The notes beneath the pieces were generated by a model, which was not told where the DNA came from, made no database searches, and saw only the letters and a list, made by a program, of their open reading frames with translations. A program made the translations under genes and the position numbers. Shown here in pieces: positions 3,001 to 22,685 of a DNA stretch of 22,685 nucleotides. Every line of letters begins with the position of its first letter. The stretch's first letter is position 1. The stretch is taken from IMG/VR virus record IMGVR_UViG_2734482779_000007. One strand, given 5' to 3'. Source of the stretch: a virus. Taxonomy: Duplodnaviria; Heunggongvirae; Uroviricota; Caudoviricetes.

Positions 3001-3578
3001 TGCGGGCCTCCTGTCGAATCGCTGCCACCTTTCACGCCACCGTGTTTATGCGTATGCACGGTAATGCCGTTTGAGGTGAAGTTGCCGCCGCTGTGCGTGA
3101 TATTGCCGCTCATCTTTCCCCCTTTTGTGACGTCAAGCGTCGCCGTTCTCAGAAGGTCTGTGCATTCCACGACGGGCGTATCCAGTGTCACGCTGACGGA
3201 TGCCTGCAGGGTGGCTGTTTTCATGCCGCTGGCGCTCAGTGCGCCTGCGTCCGCGTCGTAGCGGAACACCGCGCCATCCGGCGCGCTGACCACGATTTCT
3301 TTCAGGCTTTTGCCGGGTGCCGGACTGGCATCACTCCACAGGCTGCCAATTATCATGGCGGTTTCCGGGTTGCCGCCAATGCAGGCAATTACCACCTGTT
3401 CGCCGGGTGATGGCGGCAGCCACACATTGAAGGCTCCCGCGCGCGTGGTGTTCCAGCGCAACCAGCCTGTTTCCAGTTCGCCGCTGCGAACGCGCACGCA
3501 CCAGGACTTCTCATCAACTTCAGAGATAATCCCGGTGCGGATGATGTTGCTCAGCAGTCGCATGAGTTCTGCGCTCAT
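2997..3578 (-). CDS. V: Baseplate spike/assembly protein V (P2 gpV-like)
   Basis: 193-aa ORF with conserved NIIRTGIISEVDEK... N-terminus and HTHKHGGVKGGSDSTGGP C-terminal motif typical of gpV spikes. ATG 3578 overlaps S stop (ATGA). Confidence 0.85.
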   Translation of the reverse strand: MSAELMRLLSNIIRTGIISEVDEKSWCVRVRSGELETGWLRWNTTRAGAFNVWLPPSPGEQVVIACIGGNPETAMIIGSLWSDASPAPGKSLKEIVVSAPDGAVFRYDADAGALSASGMKTATLQASVSVTLDTPVVECTDLLRTATLDVTKGGKMSGNITHSGGNFTSNGITVHTHKHGGVKGGSDSTGGPQ

Positions 3579-11388: not shown

Positions 11389-12434
11389 TGAGCAGAAAAA
11401 ATAAAAAAGTGCGCATGAGTTCACGCATTGATCTCGCTGATGCGCTCAGGAAAGAATCATCGCTCAGTGCATTCACATTTGATGGTCCTTATCGCCTGAC
11501 CGGGCATGACCTGCTGGACAATATGTACTGTGCTGATAACGGGCGGTGGTATGAAACCCCGGTGGACTGGTACGGTCTGGCAAGAGCAGCCCGGCAAACG
11601 TCCTGGCATCAGTCTGCGCTTTACTTTAAGCGCAATGTATTACTCGGTTGCTACATCCCGCACCCGCTGCTTTCCCGGCAGGATTTCTCGGCGCTGGCGC
11701 TGGACTGGTTTGTGTTCGGTAACGCATTCCTTGAGCTTCGAAGCAATATGCTCGGCGAACCGCTTAAATTACGGCACGCCCTGGCGAAATACATGCGACG
11801 CGGAAGCGATCTTGAATCATGGTGGTATGTGCAGGATGGTAAGGACGCGTTTCAGTTTCGCCCTGGCAAAGTGTGCCACCTGATGAATCCTGACATTAAC
11901 CAGGAAATCTACGGCATGCCGGAATATCTCGGCGCATTACTCTCGGCCAGCCTGTCTCATTCGGCGGACATGTTCAGAAAACTGTATTACGACAATGGAT
12001 CCCACGCCGGGTGCATCATCTACATCGGTGCAGCGCAGGTAAACCGCGAAAGCATGGACTCCCTGAAAGAAACGTTACAGGGTGCGCGTGGTGGTGGTGC
12101 GTTTAAAAACGTGCTCATCCATGCGCCCAACGGGGGCAAAGAGGGGGTGCAAATTTTGCCGTTCCAGCAGATCACCGCAAAGGATGAGTTCATGAATGTT
12201 AAGGCGGCATCCCGTGATGATGTGCTGGCTGCGCACCGCGTTCCGCCGCAACTGATGGGGGCGATGCCGGGCGAAAAAAGTGCGTTTGGTGATGTGGAGA
12301 AGGCCGCGCGGGTTTACGCAATTAACGAGCTGATGCCTGTCATGGAGGCCATGAAGCACATCAATGACTGGCTTGGCGAAGAGGTGATCCGCTTTAACCC
12401 TTACGCACTGTTAGACACCCAGCCCACATCCTGA
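11388..12434 (+). CDS. Q: Portal protein Q (P2 gpQ-like)
   Basis: 348-aa ORF translationally coupled to P; size and position match P2 gpQ, the last gene before cos. Confidence 0.9.
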   Translation: MSRKNKKVRMSSRIDLADALRKESSLSAFTFDGPYRLTGHDLLDNMYCADNGRWYETPVDWYGLARAARQTSWHQSALYFKRNVLLGCYIPHPLLSRQDFSALALDWFVFGNAFLELRSNMLGEPLKLRHALAKYMRRGSDLESWWYVQDGKDAFQFRPGKVCHLMNPDINQEIYGMPEYLGALLSASLSHSADMFRKLYYDNGSHAGCIIYIGAAQVNRESMDSLKETLQGARGGGAFKNVLIHAPNGGKEGVQILPFQQITAKDEFMNVKAASRDDVLAAHRVPPQLMGAMPGEKSAFGDVEKAARVYAINELMPVMEAMKHINDWLGEEVIRFNPYALLDTQPTS

Positions 12435-12460
12435 CGCGCTTCGCTTGTCTGCTGCTTCGC

Positions 12461-12485
12461 CGGGGCATAAAAAATTTATGCCCCG
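12461..12485 (+). terminator. Candidate terminator hairpin after portal gene Q
   Basis: 11-bp perfect stem CGGGGCATAAA / TTTATGCCCCG with 3-nt loop, 27 nt after the Q stop. No U-run follows. Confidence 0.35.
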
Positions 12486-12858
12486 ACTCTCCAGCTCCTG
12501 TATCAGTCAGATAATTTCACGACGCTTTCCTGCTGATTGCCATCATCGACAGTCAGACTCTTACGCAATCCCACCGCGTTGACTGCATGTTCTCGCCGTC
12601 TCAGTGCGATTTTGACGGCCTTACCTTTCACCCCATCAAATCAAAAGCCCTCACGTCTTTTTCACGCTCAGCGTGAGAAATACAGCCATTCTGTTGTATC
12701 TCTGCGACATCGTTCAGGGAATGCTATTTACCCCCTGAAACGCGGGCTGTTCCCCCGTCACTTGCGCGCAGAAAAAACGCGTTTTTTTGTGCATGCACGG
12801 ATCCCTGACGGATCCAGCCACCATGCGGGCCGGAAGGGTAAAAAGTCGTTCAAAAAAA

Positions 12859-12885
12859 TTGTGCAAATTTGTGCACTATTGTGCA
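12859..12885. repeat. Three direct repeats of TTGTGCA phased 10 bp apart
   Basis: TTGTGCA at 12859-12865, 12869-12875 and 12879-12885 (one helical turn apart), flanked by A7 upstream and hairpin AGGGCGAT / ATCGCCCT (12888-12911) downstream. Confidence 0.5.
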
Positions 12886-12923
12886 GAAGGGCGATGCGCG
12901 ATTATCGCCCTGGTTTGGCAGTT

Positions 12924-13130
12924 CTAAATACGTTTCACAATACCCACAAGATTGCCAGGTGACAGTTCTGCTGTGTGTTTAATATCGTCCACTATGTACG
13001 ATGCATGTTCACGGTTAATCGCATAGATATAAAATGAGTACTTCCGTTCATCTGCCATAAAGTCGACAGAAAATAATTTCCATGTACGCCCCTCGACTTC
13101 AACCTGTAACGGCATATTTATTCCGCTCAC
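12924..13130 (-). CDS. Hypothetical small protein (68 aa)
   Basis: ORF MSGINMPLQVEVEGRTWKLFSVDFMADERKYSFYIYAINREHASYIVDDIKH...; first codon GTG at 13130 is preceded by AAAGGAG. Last gene of the minus-strand small-ORF cluster before the cos region. Confidence 0.4.
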   Translation of the reverse strand: MSGINMPLQVEVEGRTWKLFSVDFMADERKYSFYIYAINREHASYIVDDIKHTAELSPGNLVGIVKRI

Positions 13131-13156
13131 GCATAGTCTCCTTTTGAAAATTCTAA

Positions 13157-13597
13157 TTAAATATTTTCGTTACGAAGCATGGCGGCGCGGCAGGCTTCAT
13201 CAACCATAGCTTCTACGTTTTCGAGAAGTACGTAACTGTACTGCTGCCCACTAACCCATTCTTTTCTGCGAGGTAATGCGCGTGGGTCAGATACAATAGC
13301 TCGCAAACGTTCCAGAACAGTTGGTACTGCTGGCGGCTCGCGATACAGCGAGATTACACGACGCGGGTCCGCATATTTATCTGGCGGACACTGAAATATC
13401 TCACCGAAACCATACTTCCTGACATCGCGCAGTTCCTCTTCATCAGTCCATGCCACCGGTTCTGCTTCCAGCGATGCCAGAGCAATCCGTGCCAGCTCTT
13501 CCGCTTCTTCTGCTGGCAGTACAACGTTGCTACCAGGTCCGTATGTTTCGCGCCACTGCTTGATTGTCAGCAGTCGCTCTTTGGTTATAGTTGTCAT
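13157..13597 (-). CDS. Hypothetical protein (146 aa)
   Basis: ORF MTTITKERLLTIKQWRETYGPGSNVVLPAEEAEELARIALASLEAEPVAWTDEEELRDV...; ATG overlaps upstream stop (ATGA). No recognisable domain. Confidence 0.5.
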   Translation of the reverse strand: MTTITKERLLTIKQWRETYGPGSNVVLPAEEAEELARIALASLEAEPVAWTDEEELRDVRKYGFGEIFQCPPDKYADPRRVISLYREPPAVPTVLERLRAIVSDPRALPRRKEWVSGQQYSYVLLENVEAMVDEACRAAMLRNENI

Positions 13598-13803
13598 TTG
13601 TTAACCCTCAAAACTTTATGCCCGGGCGCAAAAGCACGTGTTTTGTCTTTGCTTATTCGCCAGCCATCCTTACGCGCCTCTTTTGCACAACCAGCCCATG
13701 ACGTACCGATATACTCTCCGAAGTCTGGCGACTTATATTTGCCATCTGTACACTGGAGGCAATCACAATAGAGATGCATGGTGTAACTTGCAGCGATAGC
13801 CAT
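13594..13803 (-). CDS. Hypothetical small Cys-rich protein (69 aa)
   Basis: Within ORF 13594..13824 the ATG at 13803 is preceded by AAAGGAGAG and gives MAIAASYTMHLYCDCLQCTDGKYKSPDFGEYIGTSWAGCAKEARKDGW (C-x-C-x2-C...C, possible metal site). Confidence 0.45.
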   Translation of the reverse strand: MAIAASYTMHLYCDCLQCTDGKYKSPDFGEYIGTSWAGCAKEARKDGWRISKDKTRAFAPGHKVLRVNK

Positions 13804-13804
13804 A

Positions 13805-13978
13805 TCACTCTCCTTTGATACCAATGTTTACAGTCTGGCAAGCTTCTCTGAGCACCCAGTCAACAGCGTCTTTCCATGCTCCGGTTTCGGTTGGCGGATT
13901 CTCACGCTTTACCAGTTCGCCGTTCTCAGTCCATGCCAGCTTGATGTTGGTGGAGCCGTCGTCGATACAAATTTTCAT
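13805..13978 (-). pseudogene. ParM/StbA-like N-terminal fragment (57 codons), probable remnant
   Basis: Unlisted minus-strand ORF, ATG 13978 preceded by [43 protein letters not shown]... begins like plasmid R1 ParM ([21 protein letters not shown], phosphate-1 motif) but stops after 57 codons. Confidence 0.35.
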
Positions 13979-14012
13979 GTCGCTTTTCCTTATGTTGATT
14001 AATTAATCGTTT

Positions 14013-14037
14013 ACGGGATTCTGAAATCCCGTTTTTT
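14013..14037 (+). terminator. Plus-strand intrinsic-terminator-like hairpin 1 downstream of gene A
   Basis: Stem ACGGGATT (14013-14020) / AATCCCGT (14025-14032), loop CTGA, followed by T6 (14032-14037) on the plus strand. Confidence 0.5.
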
Positions 14038-14048
14038 CCTGTTTTGTG

Positions 14049-14077
14049 CGCGCTTCAAATATCGCTGCGCGTTTTTT
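14049..14077 (+). terminator. Plus-strand terminator-like hairpin 2 overlapping the A stop codon
   Basis: Stem CGCGC (14049-14053) / GCGCG (14067-14071), 13-nt loop, followed by T6 (14072-14077). Confidence 0.35.
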
Positions 14078-16877
14078 GCTCATTTACGGGATTCGTGAGT
14101 CCCGTTTCTGTCTGTTTTTTGTTTTCACTGGTCAGGCCACCCCGCAGCAGGTCTGCTTTGCGGCGGGCGCGTTCAGTGGTTTCACTGATTCTCTGTGCGT
14201 GCTCTGTGTCGCGGATGGCGCTCAGCATGTCAGAAAGCACGGTAACGGGTGTTTTCATGGTGTTCTGGTCCTGCTGAAGTGTGGATGCCAGGCGTGCGGC
14301 GGCTTCAGGGTCTGATGCCCCCAGCTGCGCCAGATAGCTGGCGACCGGGTTATGGCGGATCTCCGTGCTGCTTACGCCGTGATTACGGCTCAGGCGTTGC
14401 CAGAGCTGCGTGATTCGGCTGTCCGGGCGGGTATCCGGTTTGCGTACAATTTCAAATCCCTGCGGTGCAATGATGCTGCCGTCAATGTACAGACTGCCGC
14501 CCCGTAACAGGTGCTGCATCTGTTGTTCACCGATATGCAGGCCGAGAGATTCAGCAGACTCCCGCCATTCTTTAGCGAGTAATTCGTGGTTATCAGGCAA
14601 AGGCCGCTGCTGTTTGCGGCTCTGTGTCCAGCTCTGCATTTCATCACTGCTGTTTTTTGCCTGTTTGTCACGAAGCGAACGCATCAGCGCCCGGCGTTCG
14701 TGCCGTTTCAGTGAGCGCATCCATTCGTTCACTTCAACGCCGTCAGGGAGCTGCGGCCACGGTGCTGGCCGTTCTTCCGGCTGTTCTGTCCCGTTGTTGT
14801 CCGTTTCCTGTACACGGGGACAGTTATTGCCACGAGTCCAAGGGGCGGCAGGGCCGCCCTGAAGGTCAAAACCATTTTCGCGGGTGCTGTCTTCCGCTTC
14901 CGGTTTACGTCTTACCAGCTTCCAGTTATCCGGATGCGTGCACACACGGGAGGATTCCCCGATGAGTGGTGACCAGATCCCGTAAATCTGTACGCTCTGT
15001 TCACCGTAATCGTTCAGCTCATCTGCGAGGTCGTAGGCGGTGCGAATCAGGTAGTCTTTGCGTGGAACAAGTACGCCGCCCTGTTTCTCTATGTAGGTGG
15101 CAAAACATCCGGCATCAGCGGCAGCGAGTACCGCATCCATTGCGTCATCCTTCAGCTGTTGCGGGCCTTCCGGGTTGCGTGCCATCTGGCTGGCAAGGCG
15201 ACGCAGTTCACGCCACACCTGACGGGAGGGGATACCAAAGAACTGGAACTGGCGGACACGGTGAAGGCGCGCCCAGCCGATGGCGCGTTCCACGCTCTCG
15301 GCCATTGACTTTCCGGTTTCGTGGTCAACGCGTGGCTTGCCCGTTTTCGGGTCGGTGCCATCCACGGCGCGGCTGTCCAGGTTCTTTCCGATGTAGGTGG
15401 CGATGTAGCTGGTTGGCGTGCCTTTTGAGCCGTCTACGTACTCCGCCTTAAAACGCGGAGTAATATCATTGCCCAGCTCGTGGCGGTCTTCCTGAATGGC
15501 AATATCACGGGTGTGGGACACAATGGTGTCGATTTCTTCCGGATGAGCAAAGACCATCATATGCCAGTGCACGGTGCCGTCATGGTGAGGCTCCACCGTG
15601 CGGATGCCATACCAGCGCAGGCCGTCGCGGTTCAATTTCTTGCGGACCGCTGCAAAAAACGTGTTAACCAGGTAATCGCTGGAGTCGCGCATGGTGGCCC
15701 CGTTCCATTTGGGATTCGGATGACCGTTCTCTGTTGTGGCGTGGTATTTTGACGGGCAGGTGACAGTCAGAAACACCGCTTTGTCGCCACGGGCTTCGGC
15801 CAGAAGTTCCAGCCCCTTCATGGTGGCCATCATTTCTGCCTTACGGTGAACCGGGTTACTTACTCCCGCGTAATACACTGTCTCGAGATCAATCGTGAAC
15901 CCGTCTTCGTTTTCCAGCATGAAACTTTTCAGGAAGTCGCGTGTTTTCTCGCGCTGTGCGCGAAATTCACTTAATGCATCCTGACTCAGATAGGGGGATG
16001 TTTTTCTGGAAACCAGACAGGCAGCGCGGAGTTGTTCCTCTCTCCATTCGCAACGTAAAAGCCACAATTTGCGTTTCCACCAGTCCGCACAGGTCAGGCG
16101 AAGGATTGCACCCGGCAGCAGTTCTGTGTCCGGTTCGTTCCTCCGGTCTTTGTCTGTTGTCAGTGCGTCATAATGCGGAGGCACTGTGTGCAGATGTAAC
16201 GCCATGCGAGCCAGCAGCTGATACGCCTTCAGCGTTATATCCATGGTCAGCTCGCCATCGGTCGCGCCAAAGCCATCGCAGAGTTTTTCGAAGGTGCTGC
16301 TGAACATTGCCGCCGTCATGACGGCCAGTGTCTGTATCTGGTGTTTGTTGAGCTGCGGCAGGTAAAGTAAATCGTCCAGACGTTCACGTCCGGCAAGGGA
16401 GCGATAACCCGGAGTCAGCCAGCGTCCGTCAGTGCGGGCCAGACGTTCCAATATTTTGCGCAGGGTTCCGCGTGCATAGCGTTCCGCCTGCCAGCTCTTT
16501 TTGCCTTTCCGGCGATCGGCTTCCTGTTTTTTGCGCAGGAAGGAGAGGTGGCGAATAAGCGGATCGCGCAGATAGGACGGCAGCAGGCGCAGCGAGGCCA
16601 TGGCTTCATCCACCGCACCGCGTGCCTGTTTTCTGGCTTCTCTGGCCAGTGTGATGGTTTTGTCCTGCTTTTCCTGTGCGTCCAGGCTTTTATTAATCAG
16701 GTTGCCCAGCGGTGTGGCGGAGAACGCCGCGTCAGCCATTTCCTGGCGGCGCTCGTTCTCTGCCCGGTAGGCATCCAGCCAGGAGGAAAGTGCGGATTCA
16801 GGTGCGGGGATCCCCGTTCCTTCACGTCCTACTGCGTGGCGCGGTTGTTGCCAGTCCCTGATGTACTCTGCCGTCAT
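14055..16877 (-). CDS. A: Replication initiation endonuclease A (rolling-circle HUH initiator, P2 gpA family)
   Basis: 940-aa ORF, the largest in the early operon. Contains ...GIRTVEPHHDGTVHWHMMVF... (HUH-type metal site) and ...TSYIATYIGKN... (catalytic Tyr region) as in P2 gpA, but is longer than P2 A (~761 aa). Confidence 0.85.
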   Translation of the reverse strand: MTAEYIRDWQQPRHAVGREGTGIPAPESALSSWLDAYRAENERRQEMADAAFSATPLGNLINKSLDAQEKQDKTITLAREARKQARGAVDEAMASLRLLPSYLRDPLIRHLSFLRKKQEADRRKGKKSWQAERYARGTLRKILERLARTDGRWLTPGYRSLAGRERLDDLLYLPQLNKHQIQTLAVMTAAMFSSTFEKLCDGFGATDGELTMDITLKAYQLLARMALHLHTVPPHYDALTTDKDRRNEPDTELLPGAILRLTCADWWKRKLWLLRCEWREEQLRAACLVSRKTSPYLSQDALSEFRAQREKTRDFLKSFMLENEDGFTIDLETVYYAGVSNPVHRKAEMMATMKGLELLAEARGDKAVFLTVTCPSKYHATTENGHPNPKWNGATMRDSSDYLVNTFFAAVRKKLNRDGLRWYGIRTVEPHHDGTVHWHMMVFAHPEEIDTIVSHTRDIAIQEDRHELGNDITPRFKAEYVDGSKGTPTSYIATYIGKNLDSRAVDGTDPKTGKPRVDHETGKSMAESVERAIGWARLHRVRQFQFFGIPSRQVWRELRRLASQMARNPEGPQQLKDDAMDAVLAAADAGCFATYIEKQGGVLVPRKDYLIRTAYDLADELNDYGEQSVQIYGIWSPLIGESSRVCTHPDNWKLVRRKPEAEDSTRENGFDLQGGPAAPWTRGNNCPRVQETDNNGTEQPEERPAPWPQLPDGVEVNEWMRSLKRHERRALMRSLRDKQAKNSSDEMQSWTQSRKQQRPLPDNHELLAKEWRESAESLGLHIGEQQMQHLLRGGSLYIDGSIIAPQGFEIVRKPDTRPDSRITQLWQRLSRNHGVSSTEIRHNPVASYLAQLGASDPEAAARLASTLQQDQNTMKTPVTVLSDMLSAIRDTEHAQRISETTERARRKADLLRGGLTSENKKQTETGLTNPVNEQKTRSDI
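14086..14120 (+). terminator. Plus-strand terminator-like hairpin 3 inside the 3' end of gene A
   Basis: Stem ACGGGA (14086-14091) / TCCCGT (14100-14105) followed by a T-rich tract ending in T6 (14115-14120). TTTACGGGATTC is a direct repeat of hairpin 1 (14010-14021 vs 14083-14094). Confidence 0.4.
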
Positions 16878-16883
16878 AGTGAT

Positions 16884-17249
16884 TTACTTCGTCATGCCAT
16901 TCAGGGTGTCGCGGCAGACTGTAGCCAGCCGCTGAATTTCCAGCACGGTGTCTTCTGTGTCGGCATGGCGATGTGTGATGCGGATGCTGTCGGCAATCAC
17001 ATCGACGATTGCAGAGGATGGGCGCTGGTAAATGCCAATAACGGACGGGGTGCCACCTTCAATGCGGTAAAGCCTGTAATTTCCCTCGTTGCTGTCAATC
17101 ATGTAGCGACCATCAATAACAATCTTTCCGTCAGCGAGCTGCGGTACAGGCAGGGATTTCAGGTACATGTCATAACGTTCACGCACGCGAACGGCAAGAT
17201 CACGCTCTGTGTTGAGCAGGTATTCAAGAAAGTCGTTGGCGAGAATCAT
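16884..17249 (-). CDS. Hypothetical early protein (121 aa)
   Basis: ORF MILANDFLEYLLNTERDLAVRVRERYDMYLKSL..., AGAGGA SD, 6 bp upstream of A. No recognisable domain. Confidence 0.5.
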   Translation of the reverse strand: MILANDFLEYLLNTERDLAVRVRERYDMYLKSLPVPQLADGKIVIDGRYMIDSNEGNYRLYRIEGGTPSVIGIYQRPSSAIVDVIADSIRITHRHADTEDTVLEIQRLATVCRDTLNGMTK

Positions 17250-17321
17250 TGCGGCAATCCTCTGGTTACAGATGTGCGAAGGCCTCCCGCCGCAAGGTGC
17301 AGGAAAGGCCCGGAACAGGAA

Positions 17322-17552
17322 TTAATGGAGTTTGTTTTGCTGCTGGATGAGCTGCTGAAGCTCGCGCAGATCATCCGCCAGATAACTGAAAACAGCGGAT
17401 GAGTAGAGGTTTGAAAGTTCGCAGCTACGCTCATGCAGCATATTGATGTGCATGATTTTAGCGACGCGGAATGCGCGGGAAAGTCTGCGGTTGATTTCAG
17501 TCTGGATGTGACGACGCTCCGCGATAGCGCGGTGCTGTTTGCGGTTTGCCAT
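17322..17552 (-). CDS. Hypothetical small basic protein (76 aa)
   Basis: ORF MANRKQHRAIAERRHIQTEINRRLSRAFRVAKIMHINMLHERSCELSNLY... (Arg-rich N-terminus, possibly nucleic-acid binding). AAGAGG SD lies within a repeated 9-mer. Confidence 0.45.
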   Translation of the reverse strand: MANRKQHRAIAERRHIQTEINRRLSRAFRVAKIMHINMLHERSCELSNLYSSAVFSYLADDLRELQQLIQQQNKLH

Positions 17553-17730
17553 GATATGTGGCCTCTTGTAGTAAGTTGTGAAAACTCACCATCCAGAGCT
17601 GCGAAACTGTGGGTGGCGAGACGTACGAGGTTCGCAGTACCGGCTACAAGAGATCCCGGCCCGACCGAAGTCGGCCCCGTACGCCCCGCCATAATTCTGA
17701 CGCGAAAAAAACGTGGCAATACAGTACGCA

Positions 17731-17752
17731 CAAAAAAACCGCTGGCGCGGTT
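17731..17752 (-). terminator. Intrinsic terminator (minus strand) downstream of the SPFH cassette
   Basis: Stem ACCGC (17738-17742) / GCGGT (17747-17751), loop TGGC, followed on the minus strand by U7 (plus-strand A-run 17732-17738). A second U7 lies at 17705-17711. Confidence 0.5.
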
Positions 17753-17888
17753 GTGCGCTCTTGTAGTCAGCAGGCTGCGAAACCCGGCACCCGTTTTATG
17801 AGGTGCATCGAAAATGTAACCTGACTGATTGCGGCATGGCAAGCGGTTTTTTTGTGAGAACGGCATACTAAAAAATCCTGATACTGCT

Positions 17889-17913
17889 CCGGCCAGCGGT
17901 TTGCACTGGCCGG
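17889..17913 (-). other. GC-rich hairpin immediately 3' of the SPFH gene
   Basis: Stem CCGGCCAG (17889-17896) / CTGGCCGG (17906-17913), 9-nt loop, starting 7 nt after the TAA stop. No adjacent U-run. Confidence 0.35.
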
Positions 17914-17919
17914 GTGTCA

Positions 17920-18750
17920 TTACTTCACGGGAACGAACGGAACAGCGGTGTTACTGGTCATGTATTGCGGCAGCGTGCCGTTCCATTTGTTGATCGCTTC
18001 CAGCTCCATAACGCCGGGATTCTGGCGCAGAGCTTCGCCGCGTAAACGAATGGCGTCGGCTTCAGCCTGGGCTTTTGTGCGAATGGCATCAGCCTGTCCG
18101 GCAGCTTCTGCGCGCAACATGTTGGCTTCTGCTTCGCGCTGTTTTACTTCCTGTTCGCGTTGCAGGGTTTTCTGGTTTGCCGTGACTTTGGCGTTAATGC
18201 TGTCGATAACGGTTGGCGGATATTCCGGTTTACCGACATAAGAGAGGCTCATTACCTGAATGCCGATGGGTGTCATTTCTGCCTGAATATCTTTAAGTGC
18301 TGAATCCAGCAGTTCAGACTTGCCACCGTCGATGAATTTATCGGTGGTCATTTTGCTGGCCAGTCGGTTGAGTGCGTCGGCGATCTTCTGGCGCAGGTCA
18401 GTGTCGGTAATGTCGTCCACGCCTTTGCGGTAGGTCTGAAACACCGTGGTAACTTTGGATGGATCAACTTTGTAGGCCACGCCGATGTGATAGCCGATGG
18501 TTGTGCCGTCACTCATCTGGAAGTTGAACGGCTCATCGTAAGTCTTCATTTGTTTGAAAGTCGGGAAGATGTAAACCTCTGTATTCCAGCCTGTCCAGTA
18601 GCGGCCAACGCCAACTACTTCGCCGACGCCTTTGTCGTCGCCCAGTTTGTTGACTTTGATTCCCACATTACCTGGCTCAACGCGATCGCAACCAACCAGC
18701 AGGATGGCGGCAAAAAGCGGGAGAATCTGAAAGAGTTTGAATTTCTTCAT
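17920..18750 (-). CDS. SPFH/Band-7 (prohibitin/HflC-like) domain lipoprotein
   Basis: 276-aa ORF. N-terminus MKKFKLFQILPLFAAILLVGC is a lipoprotein signal with lipobox LVGC. Core ...VEPGNVGIKVNKLGDDKGVGEVVGVGRYWTGWNTEVYIFPTFKQ... fits the SPFH fold. C-terminus is an A/E/Q/R-rich predicted coiled coil (QREAEANMLRAEAAGQADAIRTKAQAEADAIRLRGEA) as in HflK/HflC/QmcA. ATG overlaps upstream stop (ATGA). Confidence 0.8.
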   Translation of the reverse strand: MKKFKLFQILPLFAAILLVGCDRVEPGNVGIKVNKLGDDKGVGEVVGVGRYWTGWNTEVYIFPTFKQMKTYDEPFNFQMSDGTTIGYHIGVAYKVDPSKVTTVFQTYRKGVDDITDTDLRQKIADALNRLASKMTTDKFIDGGKSELLDSALKDIQAEMTPIGIQVMSLSYVGKPEYPPTVIDSINAKVTANQKTLQREQEVKQREAEANMLRAEAAGQADAIRTKAQAEADAIRLRGEALRQNPGVMELEAINKWNGTLPQYMTSNTAVPFVPVK

Positions 18751-18950
18751 TGCTTGATTTCCTTGATGTACTTACTGAAAAGGCGAACAACGCCTGCCGG
18801 GTACAGCATGGCAATGAAAATGCCCAGCAATACCAGGAAGGAGCTGTCTGATGAAATCATTCGGGGGAGTAGTCCTGCATACAGAATGAAAGAGACGAGG
18901 ACGCATACCAGCGCCCACATGTATGCGCGAAACCAGGTCTTTTTGTTCAT
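18747..18950 (-). CDS. Small two-TM membrane protein (67 aa), partner of the SPFH lipoprotein
   Basis: ORF MNKKTWFRAYMWALVCVLVSFILYAGLLPRMISSDSSFLVLLGIFIAMLYPAGVVRLF... with two hydrophobic helices; ATGA coupling on both sides. Confidence 0.6.
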   Translation of the reverse strand: MNKKTWFRAYMWALVCVLVSFILYAGLLPRMISSDSSFLVLLGIFIAMLYPAGVVRLFSKYIKEIKQ

Positions 18951-19165
18951 GTTGATTGCTCTCTTTTGTTATTCAGGAAAAAGTCAAAAACGTTATCGAT
19001 GCGCATCATGAGTTCGCGCTGCATCGCTTCTGGTGTTTCCGGTTCACCAGGCGACCCCAGCGTTGCGCAGAAATCAGCGATCTCGTGTTGAATGAGTTCT
19101 TTCAGCGTCGGTAAGGAATTCATGTGTGTGCGGCGATGCCTGCGTGTGATTCGCCTTCTGCTCAT
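18947..19165 (-). CDS. Hypothetical small protein (72 aa), SPFH cassette gene 2
   Basis: ORF MSRRRITRRHRRTHMNSLPTLKELIQHEIADFCATLGSPGEPETPEAMQ...; basic N-terminus; ATGA coupling on both sides. Confidence 0.45.
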   Translation of the reverse strand: MSRRRITRRHRRTHMNSLPTLKELIQHEIADFCATLGSPGEPETPEAMQRELMMRIDNVFDFFLNNKREQST

Positions 19166-19365
19166 TTACGCTGCTCCTGTACCTGTCGGATAAGGTTTAC
19201 CCGCGCCACATTAGTGGCGCAGAAGTAAGTGCCGTCAGTGAGGTAGATGTGGTGTGCATCCTTTTCCGAACGATGTTTGTCGATAGTGGTAATCAGGCGT
19301 TCGTCGACCTCGTATTCGCGCCCTCTGGAGGTAAAGCGAACGACGGGAAAATGCTTAATTGCCAT
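19162..19365 (-). CDS. Hypothetical small protein (67 aa), SPFH cassette gene 1
   Basis: ORF MAIKHFPVVRFTSRGREYEVDERLITTIDKHRSEKDAHHIYLTDGTYFCATNVARV...; AAGGGGG SD before ATG 19365; ATGA-coupled to the next gene. Confidence 0.45.
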   Translation of the reverse strand: MAIKHFPVVRFTSRGREYEVDERLITTIDKHRSEKDAHHIYLTDGTYFCATNVARVNLIRQVQEQRK

Positions 19366-19388
19366 TGCGCCCCCTTTGTCCAGTAACC

Positions 19389-19799
19389 CTATGCGTTAAA
19401 TACGGTGCACTGTGCGTCATCAATGAATGCGACTTGAGAGCGCTCTATCAGGCGGAGATTTGTCAGAATTTCTGATTCCCTTATGGGGTGAGGAGTGATC
19501 AGGTATTTATCCTGTAACCCGGCGATAATGGTGTATCGCTGTAGCTCCGAGCCAATTGTGTAAATAAGGCGTCCGGTGTTAGACAAATCCAGTCCGGTGA
19601 CGGGTTGTGTTCTGAGAACCGCCAGTTCAGCATCCTGTTTTGCGATAATTTCGGCTGCTTCTGCCGTGACTCTTGCGACTATCAGTGTGTGGGTTGCGAC
19701 GTCCATATGATTATTTGCTATGGCTTTTTTCGCTACTACGTTTTCTGTCTTTGAAATTTCTTTCAGTGCTCTGATGATACCTTCTTCTTTTGCGTGCAT
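19389..19799 (-). CDS. Hypothetical early protein (136 aa)
   Basis: ORF MHAKEEGIIRALKEISKTENVVAKKAIANNHMDVATHTLIVARVTAEAAEIIAKQD...; GGAG SD; 23 bp upstream of the SPFH cassette. Confidence 0.5.
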   Translation of the reverse strand: MHAKEEGIIRALKEISKTENVVAKKAIANNHMDVATHTLIVARVTAEAAEIIAKQDAELAVLRTQPVTGLDLSNTGRLIYTIGSELQRYTIIAGLQDKYLITPHPIRESEILTNLRLIERSQVAFIDDAQCTVFNA

Positions 19800-19867
19800 T
19801 TTTGTATCTCCGTTATTTGCGTGTGCGAATACCTCCGTTAATACGGATGGTTTTCTCGTTTTCTTAT

Positions 19868-20005
19868 TTAATTTGATGTTTTATTTGTATCGTTATTCAC
19901 CAGTGAAAAACGTTCAATCTTTTTTACTGAATGAATAATTCGCATAATTCCAATAGCGCAGGCCACCGAAATAATCAGAACAAGCCATGAGATAAATATA
20001 CTCAT
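19868..20005 (-). CDS. Small hydrophobic peptide (45 aa), unlisted ORF
   Basis: ATG at 20005 overlaps the TGA of the upstream 80-aa gene (ATGA). MSIFISWLVLIISVACAIGIMRIIHSVKKIERFSLVNNDTNKTSN: one TM helix then a basic tail. AT-rich codons; below the ORF-track length cut-off. Confidence 0.3.
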   Translation of the reverse strand: MSIFISWLVLIISVACAIGIMRIIHSVKKIERFSLVNNDTNKTSN

Positions 20006-20904: not shown

Positions 20905-21231
20905 TCATGCAGCAAAATTAAGGAAGCCTAATCCCAAATCTTCCGCCAGCTTCTTGGCTTTCTTAAGCCAGTGATTGCGCCAATCTTTACGCTCAGGAGG
21001 AAGCTGTTTCGTTGCGTCATAGACCATTTCGAGCCACTCATTCCAAAGGATGAGAAGACGGCGCGAACTCCCTTCCTCGCCTAAAACCTCGCGCTCAGTA
21101 GTTAGAGGGATGAGTCGACGCTCTACCAACTTTCTTACGGCTGATTCGGTCTTACCTGTGCGGCGGGAAAACTCATCGACGGTGATGGGGTCTGGGATCT
21201 TAAACAATGCCCTCAATAGTTCTTCATTCAT
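20905..21231 (-). CDS. cox: Cox-like excisionase / early-operon regulator (first gene of early operon)
   Basis: ORF track 20905..21300. The in-frame ATG at 21231 has AGGGAG 8 nt upstream and leaves a 95-bp gap to the divergent repressor gene, as in the P2 C-cox switch. Product MNEELLRALFKIPDPITVDEFSRRTGKTESAVRKLVERRLIPL... has helix-turn-helix character. Assigned mainly by position. Confidence 0.5.
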   Translation of the reverse strand: MNEELLRALFKIPDPITVDEFSRRTGKTESAVRKLVERRLIPLTTEREVLGEEGSSRRLLILWNEWLEMVYDATKQLPPERKDWRNHWLKKAKKLAEDLGLGFLNFAA

Positions 21232-21326
21232 GTGATAATCTCCCTGTTTGGGGTATTTCTTGCGACGGATGCCCCAAATCAAACTCATTTGTATAAACAT
21301 TAATACAGACGTTGGAGAATTGCAAC
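21232..21326. promoter_or_regulatory. Immunity switch region (divergent Pe/Pc promoters and candidate operator)
   Basis: 95-bp gap between cox and C. Inverted repeat TTTGGGGTAT (21247-21256) / ATGCCCCAAA (21269-21278), 9 of 10 complementary, 12-bp spacer. Candidate minus-strand promoter TTGCAA (21320-21325) -17 nt- TAATGT (plus 21297-21302). Confidence 0.45.
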
Positions 21327-21629
21327 ATGCGTATGACTATTGGAGAGCGCATAAAAATCATGCGTGAAAGCGAGAGACTTACTAGCCTCCCGGATACAGC
21401 AAAAATGCTTGGTTTAAACCGTGATGCTCTGTGGAGATATGAAAGCGGTAAAACTATCCCTAATGCTGAAGTAATTGAGCAAATACTAAACAACCCCAGA
21501 TTTGAGAAATATGCGTTGTGGTTTATGACTGGAAAAATTGCGCCTGAATCCGGGCAGATAGCTCCGGCTCTCGCACACTATGGGCAAGAGCCAACGGACT
21601 TACCCCCATCCGAAAGGAAAATTGGTTAA
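21327..21629 (+). CDS. C: Immunity repressor C (P2 C-like)
   Basis: ORF track starts at TTG 21312; ATG at 21327 follows GGAG. MRMTIGERIKIMRESERLTSLPDTAKMLGLNRDALWRYESGKTIPNAEVIEQILNNPRFEKYALWFMTGKIAPESGQIAPALAHYGQE matches P2 C (...LWFMTNQIAPESGQIAPALAHFGQ...). Confidence 0.85.
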   Translation: MRMTIGERIKIMRESERLTSLPDTAKMLGLNRDALWRYESGKTIPNAEVIEQILNNPRFEKYALWFMTGKIAPESGQIAPALAHYGQEPTDLPPSERKIG

Positions 21630-21695
21630 CCCTTTATTATTCTTACGTTTTACAAACTGGAAATGTCTTTCCTCGTTTCACCGGAGGGCTTGCCA

Positions 21696-22685
21696 ATGGC
21701 AATTAAAGCGCTCGATGGTGGACGGTATAAAGTGGATGTTAGACCGCGTGGCCGAAGTGGACGTCGGATTCAGCGGATTTTTAAGAAAAAGGCAGATGCA
21801 GTGGCCTTTGAGCGTTATGTTCTCAGCCACATGCACGATAAGGAATGGCTTGAAAAGCCAACAGAGCAACGTCATCTCTCAGATCTGCTTCCGTTATGGT
21901 GGGAATTGGGTGGACGCAATAAGCCATATGCTAACGGCGTTCTAACCAGGTTGAAAAAAATCATCAAAGAAATGAATGATCCAAGAGTTAGCCAGATTAA
22001 TGCTCGTTTCATGGCCGCTTATCGAAGCTCCCGTTTATCCTTGGGAGTAAAAGAGTCTACTGTTCGGCGTGATGAGTCGGATCTCGGAGGAATGTTTACA
22101 CTCCTGGCAAATGCCGGGGAATTTCACGGAGAAAATCCGCTCCGCGCCCTCCCCTCTTTGAAACGAAAATCCCCCGAAATGACGTATCTCACCACGGAAG
22201 AAATCGCCAAATTACTGGATGCAGTAAGCGGTGATGCCCGGCGGATTACGCTACTTTGTCTCAGTACTGGTGCGAGATGGGGAGAAGCGAAAAATCTGCG
22301 CGCGGAACACATCATCAATAACCGCGTGACGTTTAACAAAACTAAAAACGGAAAAGTTCGAATTATTCCTGTCTCTGATGAAGTTGTTAGTGAGATCAAA
22401 ACAAAGAAATCCGGCCTTTTGTTTGACGTCAATTATGAGGAATATCGCAAGGTGCTTCGCAGTGTTAAGCCTGACCTACCGAAAGGACAGGCTGTACATG
22501 TTCTACGCCATACCTTTGCAGCTCACTTTATGATTAATGGAGGAAATATACTTACGCTCCAGCGAATTATGGGGCACGCCACGATCCAGCAAACTATGAC
22601 CTATGCGCACCTCGCTCCTGATTTCCTCCAGGATGCAATTTCACTTAATCCGTTAAAAGGAGGTATCCACATTTCATCCACATAA
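21696..22685 (+). CDS. int: Tyrosine integrase (P2 Int-like)
   Basis: ORF track 21663..22685; ATG at 21696 follows GGAGGG and gives MAIKALDGGRYKVDVRPRGRSGRRIQRIFKKKADAVAFERY... matching P2 Int MAIKKLDDGRYEVDIRPTGRNGKRIRRKF. C-terminal catalytic motifs LCLSTGARWGEA, HVLRHTFAAHFMINGG, LGHATIQQTMTYAH. Stop TAA is the last three bases of the window. Confidence 0.9.
   Translation: MAIKALDGGRYKVDVRPRGRSGRRIQRIFKKKADAVAFERYVLSHMHDKEWLEKPTEQRHLSDLLPLWWELGGRNKPYANGVLTRLKKIIKEMNDPRVSQINARFMAAYRSSRLSLGVKESTVRRDESDLGGMFTLLANAGEFHGENPLRALPSLKRKSPEMTYLTTEEIAKLLDAVSGDARRITLLCLSTGARWGEAKNLRAEHIINNRVTFNKTKNGKVRIIPVSDEVVSEIKTKKSGLLFDVNYEEYRKVLRSVKPDLPKGQAVHVLRHTFAAHFMINGGNILTLQRIMGHATIQQTMTYAHLAPDFLQDAISLNPLKGGIHISST

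Follow-up and report, generated by a model that had tools for sequence, protein, structure and literature searches.

SPFH proteins build ring- or dome-shaped scaffolds on membranes, and their roles in bacteria are still poorly understood. One of them, QmcA, is anchored by a transmembrane (TM) segment and faces the cytoplasm. Virulent and temperate phages alike produce superinfection-exclusion proteins, which are early small membrane proteins or lipoproteins acting at the envelope. In this study we analyzed IMGVR_UViG_2734482779_000007, a stretch of viral DNA of 22,685 nucleotides (nt; hereafter the window) representing a P88-like prophage of the P2 family from Escherichia coli. It carries a gene for an SPFH lipoprotein, directly preceded by a gene for a small two-TM protein. 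The two genes correspond to gp20 and gp19 of phage N4, respectively. Databases already contain annotations of both, but the conserved pair is uncharacterized, and the role of such proteins has been called “unclear” or speculated on by authors describing them (PMC13239085, PMC10269572).

Mobility and extent of the gene pair

Homologues of the SPFH protein were identified by tblastn in 778 of 50,697 phage records, many of them of virulent phages. The carriers include N4, jumbo phages, Vequintavirinae, Ounavirinae, Pseudomonas Bruynoghevirus, crAss-like and phiCbK-like phages, and Staphylococcus Kayvirus, in which the protein is named MbpS. The complete pair is also carried by Shiga toxin (Stx)/lambdoid, P1-like and Vibrio phages. 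In N4 the SPFH homologue is gp20 (61.5% identity over the full length), and gp19, of 68 amino acids (aa), is encoded upstream of it with an 8-nt overlap; the same pair with an overlap of the same length is present in the jumbo phage SonariX. Records of phiP27 and of Stx2 phages carry the label “lipoprotein” or “serine protease” for the SPFH gene, and the start of this gene is overlapped by ATGA with an unannotated open reading frame (ORF) encoding a 62-aa two-TM protein (locus L003, phiP27, 3304-3492, minus strand). The P1-like phage RCS47 carries the pair between upl and tRNA-Met/ban, while gp11 and gp12 of P88 (NC_026014), located in the same position as in the window, are 97% and 99.3% identical to the window proteins. 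This distribution shows that the pair moves between unrelated phage backbones.

The SPFH gene was also found in 393 of 5426 complete E. coli genomes (approximately 7%), and Stx-converting prophages are among the carriers. The whole P88-type module is present in 145 of these 393 genomes. In 34 cases the E. coli copy is located on a plasmid, and the plasmids sampled are about 90-97 kb in size. When one genome per bacterial species was considered, relatives of the SPFH protein were found in Gamma-, Alpha- and Betaproteobacteria, Bacteroidota, Verrucomicrobiota, Cyanobacteria and candidate phyla (CPR).

A first-pass annotation of the window had described the pair as part of a cassette of four genes, situated between cox and A, coupled by stop-start overlaps and made as a unit. 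Its four minus-strand ORFs are present exactly where it had placed them, i.e. ORF1 (67 aa; 19162-19365), ORF2 (72 aa; 18947-19165), ORF3 (67 aa, two-TM; 18747-18950) and ORF4, encoding the 276-aa SPFH/Band-7 lipoprotein (17920-18750). All three junctions read ATGA, and the cassette is indeed flanked by a Cox-like gene (20905-21300) and the gpA gene (14055-16877), both on the minus strand. As a unit of gene content, however, the four genes do not hold together, since phages that lack the SPFH gene also carry ORF1 and ORF2, and the overlaps are generic.

To determine the extent of the mobile segment, nine proteins and two RNAs encoded in the region were mapped to 85 related loci (tblastn/blastn gene maps). 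Phage vB_EcoM-569R5 shows the same gene order as the window (DUF4754, phrog_9338, ORF1, ORF2-like, isrK, C4, derepression gene, phrog_3237, gpA), but lacks ORF3 and the SPFH gene. A three-way alignment of the window, P88 and 569R5 revealed that the difference corresponds to 17857-18950 (minus strand), where homology with 569R5 is lost; this segment comprises ORF3, the SPFH gene and a hairpin. The mobile unit is composed of two genes and the hairpin, not of four genes. It shows the features of a moron or accessory cargo, namely presence or absence among syntenic phages and occurrence in unrelated backbones. The earlier suggestion of variable cargo is correct insofar as most P88-like phages lack the SPFH gene and phages of unrelated types possess it, but the cargo is confined to the two genes and the hairpin.

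We noticed that the start of ORF3 (ATGAACAAAAAGACC, 18936-18950) and the point at which homology with 569R5 restarts (TCTCACAAAAAAACC, 17846-17860), both read on the minus strand, have an imperfect repeat of approximately 11 nt in common. This repeat may represent microhomology at an insertion/deletion junction.

ORF1 (PHROG 3459) is an early-operon gene of the P88 lineage, which is co-transcribed with the module but lies outside it, and ORF2 (PHROG 4144, matched at 1e-28) is a neighbouring gene of the same lineage, likewise outside the mobile module. Homologues of each were found in 14 phage records, nearly all of P88-like/Xuanwuvirus type and most of them without the SPFH gene; weak matches to ORF2 were detected additionally in three Serratia phages and one Pectobacterium phage. 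The view that none of the four genes belongs to a conserved backbone cannot be maintained for these two, which are kept in the P88 lineage with or without the SPFH gene. P88-like phages, including those that lack the SPFH gene, hold ORF2 homologues of 64-75% identity.

The C-terminal part of ORF2 (approximately 50 aa) is homologous to the Ead/Ea22-like protein of P88 (gp10), whereas its N-terminus differs and is basic, in agreement with the earlier description of the protein (pI 9.3). The arginine-rich N-terminus, MSRRRITRRHRRTH, is joined directly to the conserved C-terminal part. A winged helix-turn-helix (wHTH)/MarR-like gene, which separates ORF1 from the Ead/Ea22-like gene in P88 and 569R5, has no counterpart in the window (18947-19165, compared with L001:5248-5804 and L002:2676-3235), which suggests that ORF2 is a deletion or replacement variant. 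About half of the P88-like loci in IMG/VR have this variant in common.

The genes gp08 to gp12 of P88 are all joined by 4-nt overlaps, although the gene content upstream of the pair is different in this phage. The ATGA junctions are therefore a matter of operon style and not a marker of a functional unit.

The SPFH lipoprotein and its two-TM partner

ORF4 contains the Pfam domain Band_7 (PF01145; residues 23-209, E = 4.2e-31, 108.8 bits against a cut-off of 23.6), which places it within the SPFH superfamily, and it matches PHROG 200, the family of N4 gp20, at 7e-112. Its N-terminus consists of a signal peptide and a lipobox, LLVGC21, followed by Asp at position +2. In the AlphaFold2 model, built from a 25-sequence alignment (predicted local distance difference test, pLDDT, 74), strands (residues 20-95) and helices (97-162) form an SPFH1/SPFH2 core, and a 65-residue helix of coiled-coil type (179-243) follows. 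The Band_7 match, the lipobox and this helix confirm the earlier description of an SPFH lipoprotein with an HflK/C-like coiled-coil tail.

A Foldseek search of the Protein Data Bank (PDB) with the model yielded matches, at E values from 3e-13 to 2e-7, to HflC/HflK (7vhq, 7wi3, 9cz2), prohibitin (8rrh), erlin (9vvg), stomatin (9oh9), flotillin (9bq2) and QmcA-YbbJ (8z5g; QmcA at E = 1.8e-7). The alignments span about 240-300 columns. The protein has the fold of the cage-forming members of the superfamily. When only the sequence was used, the best PDB match was HflK (E = 7e-4). The C-terminus carries the conserved motif E-A-I-N-K-W-N-G-x-L-P, and residues C21, K255, W256, G258 and P261 are invariant across 11 phage lineages. 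For SPFH copies in prophages of the E. coli type the ratio of nonsynonymous to synonymous substitution rates (dN/dS) is 0.02-0.08. The SPFH/partner pair is under strong purifying selection.

The window protein is about 91-93% identical to the Stx/phiP27 copies. Since no protease domain was found in it by the Pfam scan, the “serine protease” label of the SPFH gene in many records of Stx2-converting phages (H10-H22) looks like a propagated misannotation. At the DNA level, the similarity to Stx/lambdoid prophages and to the plasmids of approximately 90-97 kb (~89-92%) is limited to the core of the mature SPFH protein (window 17953-18699), and the window and the lambdoid/P1-like copies are unlike each other in the signal-peptide region, in the partner gene and at the 3′ end. 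This pattern suggests recombination breakpoints inside the SPFH gene.

In ORF3, two hydrophobic segments were found, as expected from its previous description as a two-TM protein. Between TM1 and TM2 there is a conserved turn, G-x3-P-x-[LM]-[IV]-S-x-x-[DS], and alignment with the homologues from N4 (gp19), SonariX, phiP27 and P88 revealed seven invariant residues (Y24, L27, P29, S33, V40, G43 and P51). The protein matches PHROG 1130 at 3e-22; the window thus encodes members of PHROG 1130 (annotated as “membrane protein”) and PHROG 200 (annotated as “lipoprotein”) that are adjacent and in the same order as gp19 and gp20 of N4. No match to NfeD was obtained in the Pfam scan of ORF3, the sole hit being a sub-threshold one to RseC_MucC (E = 0.06).

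The association of the two genes was examined in 172 viral loci, which were grouped into 33 SPFH clusters (80% identity, single linkage). As a partner we accepted an ORF of 40-125 aa with two TM segments, located no more than 450 nt upstream on the same strand. Such an ORF, usually overlapping the start of the SPFH gene, is present in 30 of the 33 clusters, and in 25 of them it carries the motif of the P-x-[LM]-[IV]-S type. The same test gave 3/33 clusters downstream of the SPFH gene, none with the motif, and 0/33 on the opposite strand. These partner counts are conservative, as abutting TM helices (the phiP27 type: L003, L182 and L183) are missed by the hydrophobicity counter.

In a profile search of 1.84 billion cluster representatives, 444 clusters (50% identity) were retrieved at E ≤ 1e-30. 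Among the 150 best cluster representatives, at least 14 are single-ORF fusions composed of a two-TM segment, a signal-peptide-like helix, a lipobox Cys and the SPFH domain, and 11 of these contain the conserved motif. In several fusions from metagenomic lineages (P0173, P0178, P0190, P0193 and others) an internal Met immediately precedes the signal peptide; conceivably these fusions are translated as one ORF and then cleaved by signal peptidase II, or that an internal start is used. When bacterial species were sampled with one genome each, the partner could be detected across the whole proteobacterial branch. The proteobacterial part of the family has an obligate small two-TM partner, which is sometimes fused to the SPFH protein.

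Expression signals and neighbouring genes

The hairpin of the module (17889-17913, minus strand) has a GC-rich stem of 10 bp and is located just 3′ of the SPFH stop codon. It is present in P88 and absent from 569R5. The 71-nt stretch that contains it (17855-17925) has a predicted folding energy of -22 kcal/mol (z = -2.2), but the hairpin was not called by the terminator scan, and the nearest T6 run begins 13 nt past the stem. Thus, of the hairpin and terminator ascribed to the cassette, the former is present, while it is not a canonical terminator.

Downstream of the pair there are the genes of two small RNAs, not an operon terminator. The isrK gene (17732-17806, minus strand; Rfam RF01394, 66.7 bits against a gathering score of 50) has a promoter-like site (17842-17813) and a terminator-like site (17752-17737) of its own, and it was probably isrK with its terminator that had been taken for the end of the cassette. 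It is followed by the gene of the C4 antisense RNA (17609-17696, minus strand; RF01695, 81.1 bits against a gathering score of 45), also preceded by a promoter-like site, and then by a gene for a 76-aa “derepression protein” (17322-17552, minus strand; PF25738 at 6e-7). The arrangement of isrK, C4 and the derepression gene (17322-17842, minus strand) resembles the immI region of P1 (c4-icd-ant), placed here inside a P2-like early operon upstream of gpA. A 224-aa ORF at 17246-17920 is probably spurious; the region that it overlaps is explained by the two Rfam RNAs and the derepression gene.

Promoters and terminators were sought by consensus match only. No promoter-like site was found upstream of ORF3, and the only minus-strand sites within 17200-19900 belong to isrK and C4. 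Because no such site precedes the pair, its expression probably depends on the repressed early promoter of the prophage.

The remaining genes of the window are those of a P2-type prophage. A gene for a C-type helix-turn-helix (HTH) repressor (21312-21629) and an integrase gene (21663-22685) are located on the plus strand, and a portal protein and a large terminase subunit are also encoded. No tRNA genes were found by a tRNA scan. The closest relatives at the DNA level are Escherichia phage P88 (Xuanwuvirus, Peduoviridae) and many E. coli prophages, and the chromosomes that match the region 17200-19900 best are 96-98% identical to it.

Between the portal gene and gpA there is an interval (12434-14055) that is the counterpart of the accessory position of P2 holding tin and old; P88 has a ParM-like gene there. 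In the window this interval contains ORFs of 146 aa (13157-13597, minus strand), 76 aa (13594-13824, minus strand) and 141 aa (12537-12962, plus strand), for which no Pfam or PADLOC match was found. Another small ORF, encoding a hydrophobic protein of 45 aa (19868-20005, minus strand), is situated in the 202-nt gap that separates the DUF4754 gene and phrog_9338, i.e. where P88 (gp07) and 569R5 have a small gene annotated as “membrane protein”.

Possible roles and comparison with known systems

We lean, with no more than moderate confidence, towards the view that the mobile two-gene module provides a lipid-anchored periplasmic SPFH assembly and its two-TM partner during lytic growth, an exclusion function being our guess. 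Processing by signal peptidase II would leave a lipidated Cys21, which would anchor the SPFH protein on the periplasmic side of the membrane, and Asp at position +2 would retain the window copy in the inner membrane. The long helix and the C-terminal KWNGxLP motif would drive oligomerization into a membrane ring or dome, as in all full-length SPFH proteins of the same architecture whose structure has been solved. Both ends of the partner are predicted to be cytoplasmic and its P-x-L-I-S-x-x-D turn periplasmic, because basic residues are present at both of its ends. The topology of the fusions (TM1 out, TM2 in, signal helix out) would likewise bring the turn to the periplasmic side, together with the SPFH domain. 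The partner may sit under the SPFH assembly or nucleate it, as NfeD does for QmcA or FtsH for HflK/C.

Expression from the early promoter would occur upon infection or induction and not in the repressed lysogen. We place the action of the pair in lytic growth because no promoter-like site is found upstream of ORF3 and because virulent phages carry the pair. The least certain step is the output: the assembly might shield or reorganize a patch of the inner membrane early in lytic growth and in this way exclude the entry of a superinfecting genome. Early phage lipoproteins and small inner-membrane proteins commonly exclude secondary insults.

Several points weigh against this interpretation. Ring formation, partner binding and location are predictions, and the physiological output is a guess made by analogy. 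The region of the C-terminal motif is modelled in ORF4 at pLDDT <50, although a KWxGxxP motif that is poorly modelled in a monomer would fit an inter-subunit element. Position +2 behind the lipobox Cys is occupied by different residues within the family (S 18, T 15, D 11, G 10, others), so inner-membrane retention is predicted from Asp +2 for the window copy and is not a general feature; homologues from enterobacterial phages with C-N-K or C-E-R might reach the outer membrane. By the criteria used, no clear two-TM partner was found in phiCbK-like prophages of Caulobacterales, most Bacteroidota and Staphylococcus Kayvirus, where the neighbour of the SPFH gene is the 1-TM protein MbpV. The promoter scan is crude and leaves room for a weak internal promoter. 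Finally, the literature searched contained no functional study of the pair and no exclusion, FtsH or lysis phenotype, but only remarks in genome notes and one study of virulence in Pasteurella.

A bolder proposal can be made for all gp19/gp20-type pairs, i.e. that they are a widespread, early-deployed membrane device of virulent and temperate phages, a lipid-anchored periplasmic SPFH assembly with a dedicated two-TM protein at its centre, which closes the inner membrane to superinfecting genomes or captures a machine of the host inner membrane, for example FtsH. We put it forward tentatively and would sooner doubt than accept it. If true, SPFH assemblies would gain a new functional class, and phage exclusion possibly a mechanism that is both new and very common. 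Independently of function, the analysis delimits a large phage-borne SPFH branch, lipid-anchored and with a C-terminal KWNGxLP motif. It also corrects what looks like a “serine protease” misannotation in Stx phage records, as well as the reading of the ATGA overlaps in this operon as marks of functional units. The presence of the pair in the model phage N4 and in approximately 7% of complete E. coli genomes makes clean genetic and structural tests easy.

Two other explanations rank close behind exclusion. The first is a modulator of FtsH, of another inner-membrane machine or of membrane quality control, although we consider it unlikely. The phage SPFH assembly would mimic HflK/C or compete with it on the periplasmic side, and so change how FtsH reaches membrane or regulatory substrates during infection. 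HflK as the best PDB match by sequence, HflC/HflK in FtsH complexes among the top folds, the HflK/C-like periplasmic orientation predicted from the signal peptide and lipobox, and weak matches to the NCBIfam models of HflC and HflK all agree with it. However, these scores are far under the equivalog cut-offs, and prohibitin, erlin and stomatin fit the model equally well, so the likeness is at the superfamily level. Moreover, there is one SPFH gene instead of a K/C pair, no TM anchor, and a partner that is neither a protease nor an NfeD protein, and phages that infect Gram-positive bacteria or Bacteroidota also have members of the family.

The second, a factor for membrane integrity or lysis timing, is slightly less probable still. 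Here the assembly would stabilize the energized inner membrane, or restrain a membrane-active small protein until lysis. With its 60-85 aa, two TM segments and basic C-terminus the partner broadly resembles a class II holin in shape, the Kayvirus pair mbpV-mbpS adjoins the endolysin gene lysK, and many virulent phages carry the pair. On the other hand, the pair lies outside the lysis cassette in the window and in N4, Stx and P1-like phages, and a conserved proline-containing periplasmic turn is not known as a feature of holins.

The first-pass annotation had suggested that the four genes could be a prophage defence or exclusion module, or else a modulator of a host protease. In the former reading, they would form one cassette acting against other phages in the lysogen. 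Prophage membrane lipoproteins often exclude other phages, the SPFH pair is variable cargo, and the three ATGA overlaps would fit a common function. The defence reading is nevertheless very improbable: ORF1 and ORF2 are found in phages that lack the SPFH gene, and the SPFH pair in phages that lack ORF1 and ORF2, 4-nt overlaps are generic in the operon, the early operon is repressed and no promoter-like site precedes the pair, which is widespread in virulent phages. No model of PADLOC-DB v2.0.0 matches ORF1, ORF2 or the SPFH protein; for ORF3 there was only a non-significant match to PDC-M18B (E = 0.0068 over 21 TM residues). NCBIfam and Pfam scans of the four proteins likewise revealed no defence family. 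With neither a PADLOC match nor a promoter-like site, and with the same pair in the strictly virulent N4, a defence role is unsupported, and the pair is not an identified defence system.

Least probable of all is lysogenic conversion, in which a triacylated SPFH lipoprotein would stimulate the immune system of the animal host or serve as a virulence factor. The HflK/C-like prophage protein Pmorf0222 of Pasteurella multocida, which may or may not belong to the N4 gp20-type family, is reported to be released in outer-membrane vesicles, to signal through Toll-like receptors (TLR) 1/2 and to contribute to virulence in mice (PMC9872710). Against this explanation, the family is abundant in phages that are virulent or come from the environment, and a cell-autonomous membrane role is favoured by the fusions and by the conservation of the inner-membrane partner.

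Of the described phage systems, the exclusion proteins Imm and Sp of T4, Llp of T5, Ltp of Streptococcus phage TP-J34 and gp15 of HK97 offer a functional analogy only. None of them is an SPFH protein, and no sequence or fold relationship to the pair was found. A two-component spanin, which also combines an inner-membrane protein with a coiled-coil lipoprotein, was rejected in view of the full SPFH fold and of the position of the pair outside a lysis cassette in the loci examined, except for Staphylococcus Kayvirus, where lysK is its neighbour.

The SPFH-NfeD operons, such as those of QmcA-YbbJ and Pyrococcus PH1511-PH1510, likewise link an SPFH gene tightly to a gene for a small membrane protein. 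NfeD partners have an OB-fold or a ClpP-type protease domain, whereas ORF3 has neither, and the window SPFH protein is a predicted secreted lipoprotein, unlike the TM-anchored QmcA. In the absence of an NfeD domain in the partner, assignment to this type was rejected.

HflK and HflC of E. coli, which act with FtsH, also consist of SPFH1/2 and a long helix, and the window protein is predicted to share their periplasmic orientation at the inner membrane. The identity is about 16-18%, and the scores obtained with the NCBIfam equivalog models are well below the cut-offs (HflC, 24.8 bits against 134.4; HflK, 22.7 against 159.4). HflK and HflC are two paralogous subunits with an N-terminal TM anchor and have FtsH as their partner, while the window has a single SPFH gene, a lipid anchor and a 67-aa two-TM partner. 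The sub-cut-off scores, the single gene and the lipid anchor led us to reject equivalence with HflK/HflC.

The closest counterparts are found in phages. In P88 the pair is followed, as in the window, by the hairpin, isrK, C4 and the derepression gene, and the two loci differ upstream, where P88 has the wHTH gene and a longer Ead/Ea22-like gene in place of the 72-aa ORF2. In N4, gp19 and gp20 are homologues of the pair, with the same gene order, an overlapping start, and the same two-TM architecture and turn in gp19. N4 is strictly virulent and carries the pair near its RNA polymerase II genes, whereas in the window it is an accessory insertion in the early operon of a temperate P2-like phage.

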